Positions 10,200-56,071 of a stretch of DNA of 64,000 bases are shown here, in pieces. A model generated the notes under the pieces. That model ran no database searches and had not been told where the DNA came from. It worked only from the letters and a program-made list of their open reading frames with translations. The stretch is from SAR202 cluster bacterium (GTDB lineage: Bacteria > Chloroflexota > Dehalococcoidia > Lucifugimonadales > GCA-2719675), in assembly GCA_009392295.1 (NCBI GenBank), contig VFGW01000017.1:59933-123932 (forward strand), written 5' to 3'. Both the position numbers and the translations under genes were made by a program. Numbering within the stretch: the first letter of the stretch is position 1; each line of letters opens with the position of its first letter.

Positions 10200-10397
10200 G
10201 TGTTGATTTTTTTCAGAAAATTACACTTATTATACAGTTAATATAGTTTAGGTGTCACGTAGACATTTTCTATTTTTCTAGTTGTTTTAATAGTAAAATT
10301 TTGTTAATCTTTAGCTATAGATTTGTAGGTGTTAACATTTATATTAAATAACCTAGATTCTAATATTACGTTTTAATGTTTTAAAGAGGTGCTTTAG

Positions 10398-11499
10398 ATG
10401 AACTCAGAAAGGCTGAGGATTAATAATTCGTTAGAAAGAGTTTCTAGAATCATGGTGCGTCTTTGACGCAGAATTAAAAACTAAAAAAATTCTTCAAATC
10501 GAAAAAGAAATTTCTACAGAAGGCTTCTGGGACAATTCATTTGTTGCACAAAAAAAAATGAAAGAATTATCTATTCTTAAAAATCAGTTGGACCCGTGGG
10601 TAAAATTTCGAAGGGACTTAGAAAACTTGATAGATATTTGTGATTTAGTTGAAAATGAATTTGATGAAACATTGGCAAAAGATATTGTTGTAGAATTAGA
10701 TTCTATGGACAATGATATTAATACTGAAGAATTCAAAGTTTCATTGTCAGGATCTTATGATTATAGGTCAGCTATTTTTTCAATTCATTCTGGTGCCGGA
10801 GGATTAGAAGCTGAGGATTGGGCCCAGATGTTATTTAGAATGTATACAAAATGGTCTGATCAAAAAAAATTTAATTTCACTGTACTAAGTGCTTCGGTTG
10901 GAGAAGAGGGAGGTTTAAAAAGCATAGTTGTGGAAGTTAAAGGAGATTATGCTTTCGGATATTTGAAATCTGAAAAAGGTGTGCACAGATTAGTTAGAAT
11001 TTCACCATTTGATTCTGATCACGCAAGGCATACATCCTTTGCATTGGTTGAAGTGTTGCCTGAAGTAGAAGATGATTTGGAAATTTCGATTGATCCTTCA
11101 GATCTCAAGATAGACGTGTTTAAAGCGGGTGGAGCTGGAGGTCAAAGTGTACAAAAAAACTCTACTGCTGTTCGAATCACTCATGTTCCTACAGGAATTA
11201 AGGTAAGTTGCCAAAATGAAAGATCTCAATACCAAAATAAAACAATTGCAATGAAAATACTTTCTTCTAGGTTGTTACAGCAAAATATTAATGATAAAGC
11301 CCAGGAGATTAATAAGCTTAAGGGGGAACATATTTCCGCTGAATGGGGTAATCAAATTAGAAGTTATGTTTTGCATCCTTATACTATGGTGAAAGATCAT
11401 CGGACTGGATTAAATGTATCTAATGCAGAAGCGGTTTTAAATGGAGATATACAAGGATTTATTGATGAATATTTAAGAAAGAATATTCCTGTTGAATAG
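10398..11499 (+). CDS. prfB: peptide chain release factor 2, expressed through a programmed +1 frameshift (10398..10463 joined to 10465..11499)
   Basis: Frame 0 reads MNSERLRINNSLERVSRIMVRL and then TGA at 10464..10466. The +1 frame continues DAELKTKKILQIEKEISTEGFWDN... into the track ORF (10558..11499), which carries the SPF (RISPFDS) and GGQ (GAGGQSVQ) motifs. The slippery site is CTT TGA C. Confidence 0.9.
10461..10467 (+). other. RF2 autoregulatory +1 frameshift site CTT-TGA-C
   Basis: CTTTGAC with an SD-like GGTG (10454..10457) 3 nt upstream. This is the same layout as the classical prfB recoding site. Confidence 0.85.
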
Positions 11500-26465: not shown

Positions 26466-26717
26466 ATGTCAATTCATGTTGAAATTGCTGTTCCAGAAAA
26501 ATCTGTTTTTGTTGCTTCAGACGCAACGATGATTGTTGTACCTGGAATAGATGGTCAGTTGACTGTTTTGCCAGGACATGCCCGATTGGTAAGCCTTTTG
26601 TCTGCTGGTAAATTAACATATAAATCATCTTCAACAGAAAAAGATTTTTTAATTACAGGTGGGTCTATTTTGGTTGAGAATAATCGAGTATCAGTTTTAG
26701 CAGATGGATTGACTTAA
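26466..26717 (+). CDS. atpC: F0F1 ATP synthase subunit epsilon, N-terminal beta-sandwich domain only (83 aa)
   Basis: Operon position and a pattern typical of the epsilon N-domain (VVPGIDGQLTVLPGHARLVSLL). No C-terminal helical hairpin is encoded, and no continuation exists in any frame downstream. Confidence 0.7.
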   Translation: MSIHVEIAVPEKSVFVASDATMIVVPGIDGQLTVLPGHARLVSLLSAGKLTYKSSSTEKDFLITGGSILVENNRVSVLADGLT

Positions 26718-27440: not shown

Positions 27441-27956
27441 TTATTCCCATCCTCTTTTTACTTCTTCGGCACCACTATTTTTTAAGACTTCCTCAGCTTG
27501 AAGCATTTTATCTGGACTTGAAGTTATACATATACCTATATATCCTTCGGTAATTTTTGTGTCATAAGCACCCATGAATAGTCGTGGGAGCCTAGATTCG
27601 AAAATAATTCCAAAAACCGTAAATAAAATTGCTCCCAGCATTGTGCCTTCATACATAATTATTAGCATAGGAGGAATTGATAGAAGGGGTTTCCCTCCTG
27701 TTATTAAAGGAAATGCTATTTGATTACCCGCAGTTAATAAAAGACCAACAATGAATCCGCACATAGCGCCAATAATGGGAAATCTGTAAAGTTTGTGTTT
27801 TGGTTCTTCGTCCCCAAATGTACCATCGGGGTAAGGTGTTCCAGTTAAAATTTCATATTCAGTGGATTTGAATCCTGATTCGGAAACTTTGTCGAGCGCA
27901 TCTGCAACTGAATCTTCATCTGTAAACAAACCAATTACACTTCTTTTGTTAAACAT
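27441..27956 (-). CDS. ActD-like (DUF3341-type) ACIII membrane subunit
   Basis: 171 aa. Soluble N-domain (VIGLFTDEDSVADALDKVSESGF), then two TM segments. Its position is directly after an NrfD-type subunit. Confidence 0.65.
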   Translation of the reverse strand: MFNKRSVIGLFTDEDSVADALDKVSESGFKSTEYEILTGTPYPDGTFGDEEPKHKLYRFPIIGAMCGFIVGLLLTAGNQIAFPLITGGKPLLSIPPMLIIMYEGTMLGAILFTVFGIIFESRLPRLFMGAYDTKITEGYIGICITSSPDKMLQAEEVLKNSGAEEVKRGWE

Positions 27957-27967
27957 AATTAATATCC

Positions 27968-29344
27968 TTACTCTCTAATAGAAGCAGGCACTTTTGCTCT
28001 GCCAATTTTAATTTCATCTCTTCCAACCATGCCTTCTTTTATATCAAACAATGGAATTAGCGGGAAGACTCTAGCAAACAATAGCATACCCATTAAAACC
28101 CAAGCAAACGTCATGGCGACCATAAGAATTTCTACTATACTAGGGGTATAACTTCCCCAGTTAAACATCAATGGTTGTTTTCTCATTAAGCCTGGTACGA
28201 TTATCAAGAATCTTTCAAGCCACATACCTATGTTGACAGATATAGTTGTTATAAACATCCACAAGAAATTTCTTCGTACTTTTTTAAACAACCACATTGG
28301 TACAGGGAACAGGTATGCAGTTATAACAAATATTATAAACATAGCGCTCCATGGCATCTTAAAGACCTGGAGTTCTCGCATTGCAAGTTCTGGACCCTCT
28401 AAAGTATACAATGCATATACCCACTCAAGGAAGAAGAAGAAGAACCATGCAGTAGCGACTATAATTAGTAATCTACCGATAGCATCTAAATGATCTGGGG
28501 TAATATATTTATCCCATTTAAATAACCAAACCATTACTACCATTACTGTAGCAACGGCAGATACTCCAGAATGTATAGCTCCAATGATAAAATATGGCGC
28601 AAAAATTGTTGAGTGCCATGCTTCAGGTCCAATTTGAGCGGCGAAATCCCAAGAAACTATGCTGTGCACAGACACAAAAACAGGTAAAACTAATGCGGAT
28701 AGCAATATTCCAGCTACAATTTGTAATTTCCACTGAACTGGAGTTCCACGCCAGCCTAAAGCAAGAAATCCATATATCTTGCTTACAATTCCTTTTGTTC
28801 TATCTCTAATAATGGCTAAATCGGGAATTAAGCAAACAAATACGAATAAAGAGCTAGCAGTCAGATAAGTCATTACTGCACTTGGGTCCCAAATAAAAGG
28901 AGATTTAACATTGATCCAAATTCCTCTGGAAAAATCATAAGGAAAAACCCAAAGATCAGCTCTCCAGGGCCTTCCAACGTGGACTAATGGTGCAGCTTGT
29001 AATGCTGCAATTAGAGAAAAAACGGTTAAAACTTCGGCAGCTCTAGTTATAGGCCTGCGCCATTCAGCTTGAGTTAATCTTAGAATTGCAGAAATCATAA
29101 TTCCTGCGTGACTAATTCCAATCCAAAATACGAAATTTACCATATAGAAGCCCCAGAATACAGGTCTATTAAGTCCAGTTACTCCAACGCCTTTATTAAG
29201 CATATAAGCGAAAGCGGTCATTCCTGTTAAATATACTATGAGGCAAGCTAATGTGGCTATTGGCCACCATTTAGGTGTTGAAAATATAGAACTTAGTAAG
29301 TCCGTATTAATTTGTTTGTCTGTACGATGATGATGTTCTTGCAT
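27968..29344 (-). CDS. NrfD/PsrC-family polytopic quinone-interacting membrane subunit (ActC- or ActF-like)
   Basis: 458 aa with about 10 TM segments and an NrfD-like sequence character, within the ACIII-like operon. Confidence 0.7.
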   Translation of the reverse strand: MQEHHHRTDKQINTDLLSSIFSTPKWWPIATLACLIVYLTGMTAFAYMLNKGVGVTGLNRPVFWGFYMVNFVFWIGISHAGIMISAILRLTQAEWRRPITRAAEVLTVFSLIAALQAAPLVHVGRPWRADLWVFPYDFSRGIWINVKSPFIWDPSAVMTYLTASSLFVFVCLIPDLAIIRDRTKGIVSKIYGFLALGWRGTPVQWKLQIVAGILLSALVLPVFVSVHSIVSWDFAAQIGPEAWHSTIFAPYFIIGAIHSGVSAVATVMVVMVWLFKWDKYITPDHLDAIGRLLIIVATAWFFFFFLEWVYALYTLEGPELAMRELQVFKMPWSAMFIIFVITAYLFPVPMWLFKKVRRNFLWMFITTISVNIGMWLERFLIIVPGLMRKQPLMFNWGSYTPSIVEILMVAMTFAWVLMGMLLFARVFPLIPLFDIKEGMVGRDEIKIGRAKVPASIRE

Positions 29345-29379
29345 TTTATCTCTTAGTGATAATTGATTTGGTCATTTAT

Positions 29380-30780
29380 TTATTCTGGCTTTCCAAGAAC
29401 TAAAACTTCAGTTCTATGAAATTTTTTATGGATTTTATATAGGGATAATTCTTTTTGTTGCCAAATACTAACTACGGGGATGAACTTTGTTAATAAGATA
29501 TAAGTGAGAATTACTGCACTAATTCCACCAACGATTATCATGAGATCAGGAATGTCTGGCAATATTGTTTTAGGTACGTCAGGAAGATAAAAATTATGCT
29601 TGTTAGGGTGATCGCTTAACTGATATGCAGGAACATAAATTCTAAGTCTATCTAAAAAGCTTCCAATAAGTATGAAAAAAGCTAATATTGTAGGTCCTAA
29701 AATTGATCTTCTAATTCTATTGAAGGGCATGGTAAGCAGAGGTAAAATAAATAACAAAAAGGCTGAACCTAAGAAGGGTATGAAATAAGGACCTGTCATA
29801 GATAATTCAATGATTGCTTTTTCAGTTGGTTTAGCACCATACCAAAAAATAATAAAACTAGAAAAGAAAAACCAGACCCACATCAATGATAGAGCAAACA
29901 TTAGTTTTCCTAATGCCCAAAATTGGTCAAATCCTATAAAATCTTTACAACCTCCCCATTTTCTTAAAGCATACATAGCTATAATTACAGTTGCAACACC
30001 AGCTTGAAATGAATTTGCAGTGTGAGTTGCAGGGTATAATGAGTCAATCCAACCTGGAATTAAACTCATCGCAAAATCTGAGCTAATTTGGAAATTAAGG
30101 ATGACAAGCGTCATAAAATAGAATGCCCCCAATATTCCAATTCGGTGTTTCTGTGTAAACCATTGCTTGGAAGTTCCGATCCATCGGTTAGAAAGTATTG
30201 AAAAAAGTTTTTTATTATATGTGTTTTTAGAGTTTTCTCTTAGTACTGCAAAATCAGGAACTGTTGAAATCCATAGTAAGGCTATTCCTAGTAATACTAA
30301 ACATATGAAACTAATTAAAGTAATTATATGAGGCATGTAGGCATTCATTTTTAGTGATTCAAAGAACCACAATGTTCGTCTGCCATCACTTAAACTTGGC
30401 AAAACACAAAGAACTGGTATGAACAAGAGTAAATTTATTAGCCCTAGAGGTGCAAACAATTGTGCGACCTTAGAAATCGACCTGTTCCAGTGCCCTTTAG
30501 CAATAAATGGAGCAATGGCTACCATTGGAGCGGCCTGAACAGTTGTAAGTAAGAAAACTACAAAAGTGACGTAATAGCCCCATTTTGCAGGATTATCAAA
30601 GCCATCGTTTGTAATTTTAACAATTAATCCTATTAATCCAATAATAGAAAGTACAGATAAAATAATTAGAAAAATTGTATTTTTATTATATTTAGACACA
30701 TGTAATCCAACTAATTTTGCAGTTAAATCAGCTTGTTTAGAAAATTGTGTTTGTTCGTGTGTGTTTTGGCTAGTGGACAT
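29380..30780 (-). CDS. NrfD/PsrC-family polytopic membrane subunit (ActC- or ActF-like), second paralog
   Basis: About 466 aa, polytopic. I prefer ATG 30780..30778 (MSTSQNTHEQ), which overlaps the upstream Fe-S gene by 11 nt, over the track start at 30807. Confidence 0.7.
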   Translation of the reverse strand: MSTSQNTHEQTQFSKQADLTAKLVGLHVSKYNKNTIFLIILSVLSIIGLIGLIVKITNDGFDNPAKWGYYVTFVVFLLTTVQAAPMVAIAPFIAKGHWNRSISKVAQLFAPLGLINLLLFIPVLCVLPSLSDGRRTLWFFESLKMNAYMPHIITLISFICLVLLGIALLWISTVPDFAVLRENSKNTYNKKLFSILSNRWIGTSKQWFTQKHRIGILGAFYFMTLVILNFQISSDFAMSLIPGWIDSLYPATHTANSFQAGVATVIIAMYALRKWGGCKDFIGFDQFWALGKLMFALSLMWVWFFFSSFIIFWYGAKPTEKAIIELSMTGPYFIPFLGSAFLLFILPLLTMPFNRIRRSILGPTILAFFILIGSFLDRLRIYVPAYQLSDHPNKHNFYLPDVPKTILPDIPDLMIIVGGISAVILTYILLTKFIPVVSIWQQKELSLYKIHKKFHRTEVLVLGKPE

Positions 30781-31480
30781 TATGTTCCTGCTTGGTTCCC
30801 TTCTCAACTTTTTTAAGGTAAATTACATTCGGCTCGGTTCCTAATTCTTCTAGCATTTTATAACTACGTTTTTTGCCTTTTGATTTTACTTTAGATATTT
30901 TGCTTTCTGGATCGTTTAAATTTCCAAAAACTAAAGCGTCGGTAGCACAAGCATTTGTACAAGCTGGATTTAAATCTCTCTCAGTAGATTCAGAATTTTT
31001 TGAAAATCGCCTAATTCTTTGTATACAAAATGTGCATTTTTCCATAATTCCGCGACTTCTGACTGTCACATCAGGATTGAGTTGATTTTTAAAGCTTTCA
31101 GGCCATTCAGGTTCCCAGAAATTAAAGAATCTAACTGTATATGGGCAGTTGTTAGCACAAAATCTAGTGCCAATACATCTGTTATAAACTTGTACGTTTA
31201 ATCCTTGATCATTATGGTAAGTTGCTAAAACAGGGCAGACTGGTTCACAAGGAGCTTCGTCGCAATGTTGACATAATACAGGAACATAGCGTGCTCTGAC
31301 ATTTGGGAATTCTCCTTCCCAATACCTTTCAATTCTTATCCATTCAATTGCTCTACGTTGGTTGAATATGTCTTCTGTGTTAATAGGTATGTTGTTTTCA
31401 GATTGGCAAGCAACTACACAAGATTGACATCCTGTACATTTATCTAAATCTATTACCATTCCCCACTTATTTTCAGGCAT
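30770..31480 (-). CDS. 4Fe-4S ferredoxin-type subunit (ActB2 / PsrB-NrfC-like)
   Basis: Cys clusters CTGCQSCVVAC, CQHCDEAPCEPVCP and CIGTRFCANNCP, plus CTFC and CTNAC. Confidence 0.8.
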   Translation of the reverse strand: MPENKWGMVIDLDKCTGCQSCVVACQSENNIPINTEDIFNQRRAIEWIRIERYWEGEFPNVRARYVPVLCQHCDEAPCEPVCPVLATYHNDQGLNVQVYNRCIGTRFCANNCPYTVRFFNFWEPEWPESFKNQLNPDVTVRSRGIMEKCTFCIQRIRRFSKNSESTERDLNPACTNACATDALVFGNLNDPESKISKVKSKGKKRSYKMLEELGTEPNVIYLKKVEKGTKQEHNVH

Positions 31481-31509
31481 ATGATTGTTTCTCCGTATAA
31501 TTTTTTAAA

Positions 31510-33798
31510 TTAGTGATGATGTTTACCTTCTCCATCTCCGTCGATTTTGATCACTTTTCTTTCAGGATCTTGAGGTATTTCTCCCCCTAATTCATTTTCT
31601 AATTGAGGTAATTTTTTCCAATTTCCAGTTTTAGAAATTTTGACCTTTGTTGCAGACCAAGCTAATGCTCCAGTGTTATCGTCTTTTGATGCGTCAAGTA
31701 TGGATAACACATTAGCACCTCTATTTTTTGCATAACGTCCCATTGAAGTATGTCCTTGTCCAACAGGTACACATATTGTGTTAGGAGCAGACGCGGGATT
31801 AGGGTAAGCGATAGCTTCAATGCTTACTCCGTTTTGGTTAGTAATTTTAATTATGTCGCCTTCTGTAATATCTAACTTGGTAGCATCTTTTAGGTTGATT
31901 TCAACCCAAGTAGACCATGTTGCAGTTGAAATTGGATCTGGAAGTGCTTGTAACCAAGGAAGATTAGCTCCTGAGCCATCAGATATTCCATTTGAAACAA
32001 AAGGAATTAAATGAAAATCATACTCAGGGGTATTATTAAATTTAGCTGTTGTTAATTTTTTGAATTTGGGAGGTTTGTTGATTTTATTTTTAAAGGTATT
32101 ATTAATATCCCACCAACCGCCTCTTTGCAAAAGACCGATCCAAAATGCTTTTTCAGTTTGAGCTTGTACAGAGCCTCTTTTGAGCTTAAATAGTTTTTTA
32201 GAATCTTCGAGGATTAAATCTTTAATAGAGTCTGATTCAACATTTATGTCTAAATCCATAGTTTTGGAAATTGATATAAGTGAATCTGAGAAGCTTTTAT
32301 TTCCATAATGTCTACCTTTAGACTCAAAAAATGGCCTTACCACAGGTTGCTGAAAACCTATAGTTTGATATCCAGGCCCAGGATCTGGAATATTAGATCC
32401 CCATTCTTCTAATGGATCTCCTTGTGGTAAGATCAGGTCTGCCATAGATGCAGTATCATCCATATGTTCAGAAAAACTTACAACCAAAGGGACTCTTCGG
32501 GTAGAAGATAAAGTTTCTCTGAATTTAAGGCTGGCCGGCAAGCCGTAAACAGGGTCAACATTTGAAGTTAAGAAAATACTTATTTGACCTTTTTGCATGT
32601 CATTTGCAACTTTTTCCCATTCAGAGAAACTACTAGATATTTCTCTGTTGATCAAATCTGGAAGAGCAGGTTTTGGTTGGAATATGACTCCTCCTTTTTT
32701 ACCAACATTATCAGCCAAATAGTTTAGTGAATAAATAGCAGATAAAGAATCAGCTCCATTAGTATGCGAACCTGCTGTATCCCCGCCAATAGCTAAGCTT
32801 GGTGAATGTTCCATGAATTCATTAGCTATATTGACAATTTTGTCGGGAGTTAAATAAGGGCTAATAATTTGACATACCTTATCTGGGCTATAATCTGCAA
32901 GATCAAATTTGCCATTTTCGGTTAAACTTTCTACATTAGGCTGCGGACCAAGTTTTTGCCTTATTATTACTGAAGCAATTGACATTGCAAGTAAGCCTTC
33001 AGTGCCAGGGTTAACGTAAATCCACTCATCTGCATTTGCAGATGTCATTGAATATCGAGAACTAATGTGAACCATTTTACCTCTATGATCAGTGCCTTGC
33101 CTGAAATGTCCAAAATCTCTTGAATATTTTGTGGGTGAAATCCAACTTTCAAGGAAATCAGCACCAAAAGACAGGAGGTATTTTGTATTTTTAATGTCAA
33201 AATCAGGAATTTGTTCTTGATTAAAGACATGCTTGATTGCAGATCTTAAATTCGTTGATTCGATTGGTTCATAAATTAAATTTTTACACCCTAGAGCATT
33301 TGAAAAATTATTAAGAATCAATTGTGCGTGACCGCTGATTCTGTTGTTTGCGATTAAAATGGAAGATTTATCTTCTACATTGGAAATTTGTTCTGAAACT
33401 CTTGCTATAGCGTCAGTCCAGCTAATTTGCTCCCATTTACCTGAGCCCCTAGGGCCTATTCTGACTAGGGGGCTAGATATACGATCCGGATTATATAAAG
33501 ATTGAAGAGTTGCTTCAGTTCTAGGGAAGTGTTTTCCCTGGTTTATAGGATGATCAATATTCCCTTCGACTTTTTTTGCTCGACCTTCCATAACCCTTAC
33601 TACAACTCCGTCTGTAGCAGGAGTAGTATTAATTGAAGTAGCATACCAATTATCTATACCTGTAACTAGATCTTCTGGCATTTCGAAAGGTGCTTGGATA
33701 ATTAATTCTTTTTCAGGGACACCGCAAGCTTGAAAAACAACAGCACCAATAGCTGTTCCGCCAAGCAATCCTAAAAATTTTCTTCTTGATGTAGTCAA
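31510..33798 (-). CDS. molybdopterin-oxidoreductase-fold subunit with Tat signal (ActB1-like)
   Basis: 762 aa with the twin-arginine motif TSRRKFLGLLGG followed by AVVFQACG. DMSO-reductase-family-like sequence, sitting between the pentaheme and Fe-S genes. Confidence 0.8.
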   Translation of the reverse strand: MTTSRRKFLGLLGGTAIGAVVFQACGVPEKELIIQAPFEMPEDLVTGIDNWYATSINTTPATDGVVVRVMEGRAKKVEGNIDHPINQGKHFPRTEATLQSLYNPDRISSPLVRIGPRGSGKWEQISWTDAIARVSEQISNVEDKSSILIANNRISGHAQLILNNFSNALGCKNLIYEPIESTNLRSAIKHVFNQEQIPDFDIKNTKYLLSFGADFLESWISPTKYSRDFGHFRQGTDHRGKMVHISSRYSMTSANADEWIYVNPGTEGLLAMSIASVIIRQKLGPQPNVESLTENGKFDLADYSPDKVCQIISPYLTPDKIVNIANEFMEHSPSLAIGGDTAGSHTNGADSLSAIYSLNYLADNVGKKGGVIFQPKPALPDLINREISSSFSEWEKVANDMQKGQISIFLTSNVDPVYGLPASLKFRETLSSTRRVPLVVSFSEHMDDTASMADLILPQGDPLEEWGSNIPDPGPGYQTIGFQQPVVRPFFESKGRHYGNKSFSDSLISISKTMDLDINVESDSIKDLILEDSKKLFKLKRGSVQAQTEKAFWIGLLQRGGWWDINNTFKNKINKPPKFKKLTTAKFNNTPEYDFHLIPFVSNGISDGSGANLPWLQALPDPISTATWSTWVEINLKDATKLDITEGDIIKITNQNGVSIEAIAYPNPASAPNTICVPVGQGHTSMGRYAKNRGANVLSILDASKDDNTGALAWSATKVKISKTGNWKKLPQLENELGGEIPQDPERKVIKIDGDGEGKHHH

Positions 33799-33824
33799 CT
33801 AATTCCCTTTGTTGATGTTAATTG

Positions 33825-34433
33825 TTAGTAATGACAAGTTGTACAATCTGTTGGTCCGTCATTTTTCTTGTGGCAATCGATACAATCTCCCATTTTTAAT
33901 TCTCGTGCTTGCCTGACTTTTTCCATTTCAGTTACATTGCCATGGCATATTGTACAAGTTTCAGATGGGGCTACATTATTTTTTTCAGAAAAATGTTTTA
34001 CATGGGCTTCGTGTATGAAATGGGCATGGTCTGGAACACGATGCACTCGAATCCAATCTATGGTTCCTTTAGACGCATAGATAGAACGTAATTTTTCGAT
34101 CTCTTCTAAATCATCACCTACACTTTTATGGCAAGTCATGCACAAAGTAACCGAAGGCACAGATGCTGATGCCTCTGATGTTACGGTTCTATGACAAAAT
34201 GTACAATCAAGACCTAATTCCTCAACATGAGTTTTGTGAGGAAATTTTATGGGTTGATCGGGACCTTCATTAAGGCCAAAAACGTCTAAAGGTAATCCAA
34301 GCCAGGCAGATAAAATAAAAGAAACTAATGTTATTGCAGCGGCTAAACCAATTAAACCTACTAAAGATATAATTATGAGATAGGTAACATTTTTTTTGTT
34401 ACGTTTGGGGAATTGAAAATCGCCTGGAATCAA
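33825..34433 (-). CDS. membrane-anchored pentaheme cytochrome c (ActA-like)
   Basis: N-terminal TM helix and five CxxCH motifs (CTFCH, CMTCH, CTICH, CIDCH, CTTCH). Confidence 0.8.
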   Translation of the reverse strand: MIPGDFQFPKRNKKNVTYLIIISLVGLIGLAAAITLVSFILSAWLGLPLDVFGLNEGPDQPIKFPHKTHVEELGLDCTFCHRTVTSEASASVPSVTLCMTCHKSVGDDLEEIEKLRSIYASKGTIDWIRVHRVPDHAHFIHEAHVKHFSEKNNVAPSETCTICHGNVTEMEKVRQARELKMGDCIDCHKKNDGPTDCTTCHY

Positions 34434-34468
34434 ATTAATTTAACCTCGATAAAGTTTTTAAATATTTA

Positions 34469-34804
34469 TTAAATCCAAATAGCATTATAGATTTCCTTTA
34501 CAACAGGAAGCGCACTGAAGGCTGTATATAGAAGATAAATTAAAGCAAACGAACTGATGATGCATATTGCATAGCATGTTTTTTGAATTTTTAGTAAAAA
34601 TGAAACAAATTTGGGATTTTCTAGCTTTGCTCCGTTTATTACGGATAAAGGGCTGTCTCCAGAATCAACAAGAGAAGGAATAAAAATATATCCAACCAAT
34701 AAATTTGTTGCAATAATTATTACAACACCTACTGAATAAAACATAAAGTGTAAAAATTGACTAATTTCAGCCCAATGAGAACCTGTAACAGTAATTGGAT
34801 CCAT
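34469..34804 (-). CDS. hypothetical small membrane protein upstream of actA-like gene
   Basis: 111 aa with two hydrophobic segments, on the same strand 35 nt upstream of the pentaheme gene. I recognise no family. Confidence 0.4.
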   Translation of the reverse strand: MDPITVTGSHWAEISQFLHFMFYSVGVVIIIATNLLVGYIFIPSLVDSGDSPLSVINGAKLENPKFVSFLLKIQKTCYAICIISSFALIYLLYTAFSALPVVKEIYNAIWI

Positions 34805-52745: not shown

Positions 52746-53009
52746 TCATTTCAATTTAGATTTTAGAGCTGCTCTCATTTCTTTGACCCTATTTAAATCA
52801 GGGTGTTTGTTATCTTCTAGGCTTTTATCGTAAATTACATCGCCATCAGCTATAACTTTCAAAACTCCACTTTCACCAGGTGTCAACGTTAGGGCAATTC
52901 CATTGCCGCATTCAGCAAAAAATTCATTAGCCATCCAGGCTGCTTCAGCATGGAAACTTCAGGGTACGCAATAGATAATTTCTACATGTAGTTTGTTTTC
53001 TAAAGACAT
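52746..53009 (-). CDS. SelW/Rdx-family selenoprotein (87 aa, in-frame UGA = Sec at codon 17)
   Basis: From ATG 53009 (GGAG 7 nt upstream) the product reads MSLENKLHVEIIYCVP-U-SFHAEAAWMANEFFAECGNGIALTLTPGESGVLKVIADGDVIYDKS...FPD-like tail. The CVPU motif sits at the family's CxxC/CxxU position. The track reports only the 62 aa after the UGA. Confidence 0.7.
52959..52961 (-). other. putative selenocysteine UGA codon
   Basis: TGA on the minus strand (tca on plus), two residues after Cys14. There is family-like sequence on both sides. Confidence 0.65.
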
Positions 53010-53178
53010 AATAACTCCGTAATTATTTGAGCGATTTGAATTAATCAAATGAGATTAGCATTGGTTAATATGGATGTCAATCGAATTAGTATCGTGAGTT
53101 GTTTGCAATTTAAGTGTAAAATAGAAAGATATCAAGATTAGATTTTTTAAAAATTATAAGATATAGAGTTTACAGAAT

Positions 53179-53802
53179 ATGGAAAAAGTGAAGATTGATA
53201 TATTTGCTGATTATGCATGTCCTTTTGTTTTTAATACTTATATATGGTTAAGAAAAATTAAGAATCATTATGGAGGCAATTTAGAAATAAATTGGAGAAG
53301 TTTTTTATTAGGCATAAAAGATAAAGAAAACTTTAATTGGAAAGACTCTGAAACATTGAGTTCAAATAGATCTTTATTGTCTTTAATTGCAGGTAAAGCT
53401 GCTAAAAAACAAGGAGATGAGGTGTTTGAAAGGTATCATGATAAATTATTAATTTCTCGTCATAGACAAACAGATAGGATTCATTTAAATGATAAATCAA
53501 CTTTAATTAGATTAGCTGATGAATGTGAATTAAATGTAGAACAATTTGAGCTTGACTTAAATAATGAAAATATAATTGATGAAGTGTCTAATGATTATAA
53601 TGAAGGTTTAAAAATTGGTGTTTTTGGAACGCCAACTTTTGTGTTTGAAAATGGAAATTCTATTTATTTAAAAACTTTTATTCCGCCAGAACAAGATATG
53701 ATTAAGAGCTTCGAATATTTTTTGTTAATTTCTAAAAACTGCTCATTTATTGGTGAAATGAAGCGACCTCAGCCGCCATGGCCCAGTGGTTATAATGTTT
53801 AA
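53179..53802 (+). CDS. DsbA-like thioredoxin-fold protein with single-Cys CPFV motif
   Basis: IDIFADYACPFVFNTY sits at the position of the DsbA-family CxxC (second Cys replaced by Val). The later GVFGTPTFVF is the cis-Pro loop region. Confidence 0.6.
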   Translation: MEKVKIDIFADYACPFVFNTYIWLRKIKNHYGGNLEINWRSFLLGIKDKENFNWKDSETLSSNRSLLSLIAGKAAKKQGDEVFERYHDKLLISRHRQTDRIHLNDKSTLIRLADECELNVEQFELDLNNENIIDEVSNDYNEGLKIGVFGTPTFVFENGNSIYLKTFIPPEQDMIKSFEYFLLISKNCSFIGEMKRPQPPWPSGYNV

Positions 53803-54520: not shown

Positions 54521-56071
54521 TTAATTTACCAAGAAGTGATTTTCAAGATATTTTATATCTAGTTCAGGATATAAAGGAAATTGTTCCAGCAAATTTGTGA
54601 CATTAACTTTAGCTTGTTGAAGAGCTTCTTCATTTAGACTAAATTTTGCTTTTGATAATTGACCAGATCTAGCACCCTTTTTGATAGTTTCAGGTGTAGT
54701 ATTTTCCAATACAATTTTTAAGGTTTCAGCAATTATTTTCATTTCACTAGGACCCATTCCAAGTGAAGTTACTGCAGGGGTTCCCAACCTTAGGCCGCTT
54801 GTGTACCAAGGGCCATTTTTGTCAAAAGGGAGTGAATTTCGGTTAAGTGTAATTTTTGCGCTTCTAATTGCTGATTCAGCTTGTCGTCCAGTTAGGTTGA
54901 GTTGAGACACATCAATTAAAAGTAAGTGATTATCAGTTCCCCCAGTCAAAACTTCTAGACCTTGGTTGATACAATTTTCAGCTAAAGAAGATGCATTGCT
55001 AATGATATTTTTTGTATAAGTTTCGAATTCTTTAGATTGAGCTTCTTTAAATGCTAAAGCTTTAGATAGCATTACATGAGGTAATGGTCCCCCCATTACC
55101 ATAGGACACCCTTTGTTAACTTGATCAGAAAATTCTGAAGTAGATAGAACCATTCCACCCCTAGGGCCTCTTAATGTTTTGTGAGTGGTAGAGGTGATTA
55201 CATCAGCAAAAGGTACAGGGTTAAAATCCCCCGAGAATGCTTTTCCTGCAACTAATCCTGAAAAGTGAGCCATGTCAACCATAAGTACAGCTCCAATTTC
55301 ATCAGCTATTTCTTTAAAAATCCTGAAGTTAATTTTTCTTGGATAAGCACTATATCCAGCTAATAGAATTAATGGTTGAAATTTTTTAGCTTTATCTCTA
55401 ATCACATCGTAATCAATCAACATAGTTTTTTGATCGACATCATAAGATTCAACATTGAACATTCTTGAAGAAACATTGTGTCTGTATCCGTGTGTTAAAT
55501 GACCCCCAGAGTAGTAATTCATTCCTAATAATTTTTGTTCGCCAAAAGCTTTTCGTAACTCAGACCATTCATTTCCTGAAAGTTGAGACACATCTTTTTT
55601 ATCTGTTTTTGACAAAAAAGGATCTTGAATTTTTTGGTTTAATATAGACCAAAAAGCAATTAAGTTTGCGTCGGCACCGGAATGAGGTTGTACGTATGCA
55701 TTTTCTGAATTAAAAAGCTCACAAGCTGATTGAGCCGCCATATTTTCAATTTCATCAACATTGTCACATCCAGCATAAAATCTATGGAATGGAAATCCTT
55801 CAGCATATTTATCAGTGAATAGATTTCCCATTGACAACTGTACAGCTAGAGAAGAAAAATTTTCACTGGCAATCATTTTTAAATTATTTTTTTGATCTGA
55901 AAGTTCTTTTACTATAGACCTTGCAATTTCTGGAGAGATAGAATTAATATGATCAATCATAGATATATATGATATTGCTCCGGAATTAAGTTTCGATTTT
56001 GAAACAGAAGAATTTTCCAAATAATTTGTAATGAAATGATTTTGATTCATTTTTTTAAATAAAACACTCAA
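54521..56071 (-). CDS. glyA: serine hydroxymethyltransferase (long form; true start may be ATG 55960)
   Basis: MIASENFSS, GGHLTHG, and the PLP-Lys motif TSTTHKTLRGPRGG. The track ORF is 516 aa. An internal Met (MIDHINSISPEI) gives a more typical N-terminus. Confidence 0.9.
   Translation of the reverse strand: MSVLFKKMNQNHFITNYLENSSVSKSKLNSGAISYISMIDHINSISPEIARSIVKELSDQKNNLKMIASENFSSLAVQLSMGNLFTDKYAEGFPFHRFYAGCDNVDEIENMAAQSACELFNSENAYVQPHSGADANLIAFWSILNQKIQDPFLSKTDKKDVSQLSGNEWSELRKAFGEQKLLGMNYYSGGHLTHGYRHNVSSRMFNVESYDVDQKTMLIDYDVIRDKAKKFQPLILLAGYSAYPRKINFRIFKEIADEIGAVLMVDMAHFSGLVAGKAFSGDFNPVPFADVITSTTHKTLRGPRGGMVLSTSEFSDQVNKGCPMVMGGPLPHVMLSKALAFKEAQSKEFETYTKNIISNASSLAENCINQGLEVLTGGTDNHLLLIDVSQLNLTGRQAESAIRSAKITLNRNSLPFDKNGPWYTSGLRLGTPAVTSLGMGPSEMKIIAETLKIVLENTTPETIKKGARSGQLSKAKFSLNEEALQQAKVNVTNLLEQFPLYPELDIKYLENHFLVN

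Follow-up and report, generated by a model that had tools for sequence, protein, structure and literature searches.

SelW-like proteins carrying a CxxU motif constitute the most abundant selenoprotein family of marine prokaryotes (PMC2398784, PMC1088965, PMC9402790). The GOS data contained 427 SelW-like forms with selenocysteine (Sec) versus 56 with cysteine, and the family accounted for 11.3% of all selenoprotein genes in a later re-analysis (PMC1088965, PMC2398784, PMC9402790). Selenoproteins and tRNA-Sec have been reported in Chloroflexi (PMC1794560, PMC5389517), and BSepDB places two MAGs of Dehalococcoidia among its ten bacteria richest in selenoprotein genes, with counts of 49 and 46 (PMC13326102). 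The consensus model of the bacterial SECIS (bSECIS) comprises an apical loop of 3-9 nt, an upper stem of 4 bp or more, a G in the first two loop positions, a UGA-to-loop distance of 16-37 nt and a minimum free energy (MFE) of -7.5 kcal/mol or lower (PMC13188914), and about 13% of the bacterial selenoprotein genes catalogued in BSepDB are without a canonical SECIS.

The locus described here lies on the minus strand of a 64-kb window, by which we mean the whole stretch of DNA that was analysed, from a low-GC (about 33-34%) marine Chloroflexota organism. Judged from sequence comparison, it is with a probability of about 0.9 a genuine selenoprotein gene, an ordinary representative of the known family that calls for no new mechanism or family. 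The preliminary description presented it as a 'hidden' selenoprotein, a term that is apt for the annotation, where the gene is cut short, but not for the family itself, which is well known.

An Rdx/SelW-like reading frame with an internal UGA

ORF finders and public gene calls report a truncated ORF of 62 aa (MANEFF..., 52746..52934, minus strand) in place of the full gene. As the preliminary description had noted, the same frame continues upstream to an ATG at 53009..53007 (minus strand), and the translation reads MSLENKLHVEIIYCVP-stop-SFHAEAAWMANEFF...KSKLK-stop. The internal TGA (52961..52959, minus strand) is found two residues past Cys14 (codon 52970..52968), as described, and is the predicted Sec codon at residue 17 of a C-V-P-U motif, while the terminating TGA occupies 52748..52746. 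The full CDS (52746..53009, minus strand) comprises 87 codons including the one UGA-Sec; it is delimited by the translation, the match to Pfam Rdx and the N-terminus M-x-x-E-x-K...EIIYCVP, which is kept in the orthologues. A Shine-Dalgarno-like GGAG, presumably functional, is seen on inspection at 53018..53015 (minus strand). The motif had been placed 7 nt before the ATG, a distance that proved approximate, the real spacer being 5 nt. Taken together, 53009..52746 (minus strand) is very probably a single gene for an 87-residue thioredoxin-fold oxidoreductase of the Rdx/SelW-like type, with the predicted active site Cys14-Val-Pro-Sec17.

The assignment to the Rdx family, proposed earlier from motifs alone, was borne out by profile searches. 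With U read as C, the full product scored 48.9 bits on Pfam Rdx (PF10262; gathering score 22.6), residues 8-77 covering profile positions 1-70 of 74. The 62-aa ORF alone, which is without strand beta-1 and the redox motif, scored 20.4 bits and fell under the gathering score. The sole NCBIfam matches were two SelT/SelW/SelH models, each under its curated cut-off: TIGR02174 (CXXU_selWTH; 30.9 versus 34.2) and NF041051 (41.6 versus 88), a shortfall that is expected in the latter case because NF041051 is a Campylobacter equivalog. A phmmer search of the PDB returned six bacterial SelW-related structures (2OKA, 3DEX, 2OJL, 2FA8, 2OBK and 2P0G). In the alignment of the PDB sequences, Y-C-V-P-U superposes on the Y-C-T-Q-C of 2OKA, 3DEX and 2OJL, so that the UGA takes the position of the second redox Cys, in keeping with the suggestion that it occupies the CxxC/CxxU site after the first beta strand. 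The helix start A-A-W-[ML]-A that follows the motif is common to the window protein and the PDB Rdx proteins.

The predicted fold is in agreement with the sequence matches. A structure model was made of P0003, a natural Cys-form orthologue that is 57% identical to the window protein (AlphaFold; pLDDT 81, pTM 0.71). Its topology, b1-[CVPC]-a1-b2-b3-b4-a2, is thioredoxin-like, and motif residues 14-17 sit between strand E7-14 and helix H20-37. When the P0003 model was compared with the PDB using Foldseek, the best 21 matches were the solved bacterial Rdx structures, followed by mouse SelW (2NPB) and, only after it, by thioredoxins; TM scores were 0.70-0.87 for 2OBK, 2FA8, 2P0G, 2OJL, 2OKA, 3DEX and 2NPB.

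The gene appears to be a stand-alone unit, since its neighbourhood is absent from other lineages. Downstream lie genes for GAPDH and an SDR, and upstream a divergently transcribed gene for a DsbA-like protein, followed by RNase III and serine hydroxymethyltransferase (SHMT). The closest reference, MAG contig PBID01000003, is syntenic, with neighbouring proteins 74-99% identical, and it alone shares this arrangement; a conserved operon context was consequently rejected. The DsbA-like thioredoxin-fold protein (53179..53802, plus strand) carries C-P-F-V in place of the usual CxxC and so has one active-site Cys, and its adjacency to the selenoprotein gene is likewise retained only in PBID01000003. 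The SHMT ORF (54521..56071, minus strand) is 516 aa long when read from a TTG, about 100 aa over the usual length, and its Pfam match falls in two stretches; the true start may be further downstream, or the protein may have an N-terminal extension. Elsewhere in the window, a cluster at 27441..34804 (minus strand) encodes a QrcB/molybdopterin-like protein of 762 aa and an NrfD/DsrP-like membrane protein of 458 aa, resembling an alternative complex III-like respiratory module.

Conservation of the UGA and its place in the genetic code

The orthologue set comprised 106 sequences, the window and 105 further loci. A scan of reference genomes gave 25 Chloroflexota loci (Dehalococcoidia, SAR202 and unclassified) together with one haloarchaeal Cys homologue, and a metagenome scan gave 80 further loci. 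Chromosomes OZ242024.1, OY282442.1 and OY762633.1 and the PBID01 MAG carry an orthologue. Identity to the window protein ranges from 45 to 93%, and the codon at residue 17 is TGA in 102 of the 106 sequences, TGC in two and TGT in two; the four Cys forms (L074, L094, L095 and L101) are on metagenomic contigs. The homologues do align upstream of Met26, a point on which the first reading of the locus had made itself depend. The invariant residues of that part (E, I, Y, C, V and P) are each encoded by two to four synonymous codons, and synonymous variation at invariant residues is found on both sides of the UGA. Because such a pattern is the hallmark of a protein under selection, the 16 codons upstream of the TGA are translated in one frame with the downstream part, and the codon alignment shows protein-level selection on the reading frame to either side of the UGA.

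These data bear directly on whether the TGA might be a genuine stop, in which case the gene would be decayed or truncated and would yield a peptide of 16 residues, the product of 62 residues that starts at Met26, or no product at all. Gene callers do pick the 62-aa ORF, UGA is a normal stop in the organism and no Sec machinery is seen in the window. A true stop is nevertheless difficult to reconcile with a TGA held at the same codon in so many diverged orthologues and replaced only by Cys in the rest, with 16 upstream codons whose amino acids are conserved while their synonymous sites are free, and with a fragment that falls below the Pfam threshold once beta-1 and the redox motif are removed; a pseudogene, moreover, would not retain the covarying hairpin described below. 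The 25 residues upstream of Met26 bring 28.5 bits to the Pfam Rdx score, and the earlier argument against a chance stop therefore stands. We consider a genuine stop extremely improbable, and a Sec codon remains the preferred reading of the TGA.

A sequencing or assembly error, with TGC or TGT as the true codon of a plain CxxC protein, would take only one base change, and Cys forms do exist in four related metagenomic contigs. The chance of it is negligible: seven assemblies of the window's population, obtained independently from different samples and 99.6-100% identical in nucleotide sequence over the gene, all have TGA, as do 101 further orthologous loci. The comparison of assemblies thus settles in favour of TGA a check that had been proposed with the original description.

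TGA ends 10 of the 50 long ORFs in the window, the SelW-like gene included. The window also encodes release factor 2: the prfB ORF (10558..11499, plus strand) matches its profile only from position 47 on, and a canonical +1 frameshift site, CTT TGA C, is found upstream at about 10453..10459, extending the gene region to 10380..11499 (plus strand). The split of prfB in the ORF list is accounted for by its known autoregulatory programmed frameshift. Given an RF2 with this site and the TGA-ended ORFs, UGA is an ordinary stop in the organism, and the internal UGA of the SelW-like gene therefore needs a local signal.

It is in this light that decoding of the UGA as something other than Sec has to be weighed, either by near-cognate read-through with Trp or Cys or by reassignment of UGA as in code 4/25-like systems. 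A public gene call, P0001, is the single 87-aa public record of the protein and has Trp at the UGA, and no Sec machinery was found in the window, in the 10 kb to its left or around the orthologous loci. The Trp of P0001 is, however, a gene-caller artefact of short contigs, to which a code with UGA as Trp was applied. Reassignment would also have to accommodate the UGA-dependent autoregulatory site of RF2 and the ORFs that TGA terminates, and no other TGA-interrupted gene was seen in the 64 kb. The UGA, furthermore, falls at the catalytic Cys/Sec position, in a family for which many Sec members are on record (PMC2398784), and a dedicated downstream hairpin is maintained. Non-Sec decoding is thus very improbable, and selenocysteine insertion is favoured.

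Searches for the Sec machinery were negative within the regions covered. No selA, selB, selC (tRNA-Sec) or selD was found in the 64-kb window, which has one tRNA (Gln) and in which the 20 ORFs in the SelD, SelA and SelB size ranges are other proteins. Exact-protein look-up to the left of the window covered a further 10 kb and recovered no sel genes, nor did the flanks of the orthologous loci yield selA, selB, selD or tRNA-Sec. Weak tblastn matches with an E. coli SelD query upstream of the gene in L002, L005, L008 and L011 proved spurious; they fall in GC-rich DNA that encodes a 2-hydroxyacid dehydrogenase in another frame. That the machinery is encoded elsewhere, as the preliminary description required, is supported indirectly by the selenoprotein-rich Dehalococcoidia MAGs (PMC13326102). 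Screens of the window showed no second TGA-interrupted gene, but the coding-potential screen is too insensitive to exclude other selenoprotein genes because it missed the selW-like locus too. The only candidate outside a long gene, near 26555 (minus strand), was rejected as antisense to atpC. This short atpC (ATP synthase epsilon, 83 aa; 26466..26717, plus strand) occupies an apparent gap after atpD.

The hairpin downstream of the UGA

The candidate SECIS is a small hairpin, AGCC-UGGAU-GGCU (52941..52929, minus strand), with a 4-bp stem and a 5-nt loop that has G-G at loop positions 2-3 and begins 21 nt past the UGA. With the U of the UGA numbered 1, the first stem base is nucleotide 21 and the stem is formed by nucleotides 21-24 and 30-33. 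The element overlaps the codons for A-A-W-M-A and includes the ATG (52934) from which gene callers start the ORF. RNAalifold returned the 4-bp hairpin as the single consensus element, both with 25 sequences and with a set of 49 unique ones. Among the latter, 99% of cells are paired in the hairpin; pair 21-33 is GC in 41, AU in 5 and GU in 2 sequences, pair 23-31 is CG in 38, UG in 8 and UA in 3, and pair 22-32 occurs as G-C and G-U. Double compensatory changes are thus present in two of the four stem pairs. None of 500 shuffles matched the observed pairing or covariation, and moving the partner strand by 1-3 columns as a control reduced pairing to 0.5-56%. The hairpin proposed originally is therefore the sole structure to find support in both the RNAalifold consensus and the pair counts, and the conservation in orthologues that was expected of it was found.

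Some of the compensation is nonsynonymous. A change from AAWMA to AVWMT accompanies a change of the stem from GGCC/GGCC to AGUC/GACU, the stem of L066 is GGUC/GACC, and changes from Ala to Val or Thr preserve the base pairing. The stem-forming Ala codons are near-fixed (GCG in 22/24, GCC in 24/24 and GCC in 22/24 sequences), while other four-fold sites at invariant residues use three or four codons each. The invariance of the loop can be explained by the protein, because A-A-W-[ML]-A is a family protein motif even in the Cys-only proteobacterial members. Judging by the aligned codons, however, the protein does not explain the fixed synonymous sites and the covariation of the hairpin. A series from G-C through G-U to A-U is seen in the clade of the window and, as a separate occurrence, in L087-L091. 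In a genome with 33% GC, AT-biased drift could be partly responsible for the G-C to A-U change of the window's clade, which is at third codon positions, and since drift may contribute there, the argument from covariation is carried by the independent and nonsynonymous compensations elsewhere. These show the short, GC-rich 4-bp hairpin with its G-containing loop to be maintained by compensatory changes across the alignment.

A divergent 'ATW' clade (L092, L100 and L102-L110; motif ...HATATWMANEFFR...) keeps the UGA with a shifted register of the hairpin, [C/U]GCCA-CGUGGA-UGGC[G/A], which has a 5-bp stem and a 6-nt loop. Its closing pair covaries: five unique sequences have U-A there, and another five have C-G. 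The Cys forms are only a partial negative control for the hairpin, since L074 (the locus of P0003) retains the standard stem via a U-G wobble and L101 retains the shifted register only, whereas L094 and L095 have kept neither. The missing stem of L094 and L095 fits a relaxation of selection on the hairpin once Sec had been replaced by Cys.

The hairpin satisfies the four geometric features of the bSECIS model (loop, stem, G and spacing), with a stem length at the lower limit. In terms of stability, the hairpin alone amounts to -5.5 kcal/mol in the window and to a median of -7.8 in the orthologues, compared with the bSECIS limit of -7.5. A 60-nt fold with the hairpin enforced gave -14.7 in the window and -7.5 or lower in 69 of 70 sequences, the extra pairs being not conserved. 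The unconstrained MFE structure includes the hairpin in 46 of the 70 sequences; the window is not among them, and its MFE structure, like that of several orthologues, is a competing longer hairpin that begins right after the UGA. This long hairpin was rejected as a conserved element, as it is 72% paired, 103 of 500 shuffles were as good, and the pairs in it that never break either involve positions that His, Trp and Met codons hold fixed or are Y-G wobbles. The outer CAU...AUG helix that had been drawn around the small hairpin did not hold up: it is pairable in the window, but only 45% of its cells are paired across the orthologues, and it was dropped from the candidate SECIS. Extension of the lower stem across a 2x2 internal loop is tentative (pair 18-36 is GC in 39 and AU in 5 sequences, and pair 17-37 is 61% paired). 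The Rfam SECIS families gave no match on 52850..53020 at the gathering threshold or at E values up to 10, a miss that says little because bacterial SECIS elements are short and lineage-specific.

By analogy with the established bacterial pathway, SelB-GTP with Sec-tRNA(Sec) would bind the hairpin loop as it emerges near the ribosome and, competing with RF2, bring selenocysteine to the UGA. The product would possess a Cys14/Sec17 selenenylsulfide redox centre located between beta-1 and alpha-1, at the N-terminus of helix a1. A thiol- or glutathione-linked redox role is what the motif of the bacterial SelW-like family is generally taken to indicate. We regard it as rather unlikely that the 13-nt hairpin (4-bp GGCC/GGCC stem, UGGAU loop) on the Ala-Ala-Trp-Met-Ala codons is a minimal SECIS, without a conserved lower stem or bulge. 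Were this 13-nt element enough by itself, the SelB of marine Dehalococcoidia would make do with a smaller recognition element than in the E. coli or Moorella paradigms, and the locus would provide a clean example in which an RNA signal and a protein motif constrain each other. An unusual 8/4 tRNA-Sec has already been reported from Chloroflexi.

Annotation and comparison with known systems

In dozens of assemblies and MAGs, the public gene calls for these loci are mostly fragments of 62-69 aa that lack a Pfam domain, and the domain-less 62-aa product is recorded in at least 39 blocks of a public collection (including L114-L120). The gene is cut short by the callers because its predicted active-site selenocysteine is encoded by UGA, and the outcome is a systematic mis-annotation of a SelW-like selenoprotein in marine metagenomes. 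The chief value of the present analysis is to correct this annotation, as the truncated records hide a predicted selenium requirement of abundant marine Chloroflexota. In addition, the 70 unique Sec-form sequences, with their compact and covarying SECIS candidate, could help to extend bacterial SECIS models. The features peculiar to it are the clade, the very compact hairpin on A-A-W-M-A codons and the systematic truncation in public annotations.

The window protein has a clear kinship with the solved members of the family. It is 27-36% identical to the bacterial Rdx proteins of known structure (2OKA, 2OJL, 2FA8, 2OBK, 2P0G and 3DEX), which carry Cys and not Sec, and 15% identical to mouse SelW (2NPB). 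All share Y-C-x-x-C/U followed by the helix A-A-W-[ML]-A, and the P0003 model superposes on them with TM scores of 0.7-0.87. The mouse gene differs in having a eukaryotic SECIS in its 3'-UTR, in contrast to the coding-region hairpin found here. With respect to the RNA signal, the closest described elements are the E. coli fdhF-type SECIS and the consensus bSECIS (PMC13188914), which likewise are hairpins within the CDS just 3' of the UGA, and the 5-nt apical loop with G-G at positions 2-3 and the 21 nt from UGA to loop are also alike. The present hairpin departs from them in that its clade-wide stem has only 4 bp and lacks both a conserved bulged U and a conserved lower stem, and in the -5.5 kcal/mol of the hairpin alone.

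The closest counterparts overall are the SelW-like CxxU proteins of the Sargasso Sea and GOS data (PF10262/TIGR02174), which have the same fold, a similar size of about 85-90 aa and CxxU after beta-1, and in which the UGA is directly followed by a small G-containing hairpin. The marine habitat is shared as well, and Cys forms are similarly few (4/106 here, 56 Cys versus 427 Sec in GOS). There is no difference in kind between those systems and the locus described here, the particular features of which are its marine Dehalococcoidia/Chloroflexota clade, the C-V-P-U motif and the hairpin GGCC-UGGAU-GGCC.
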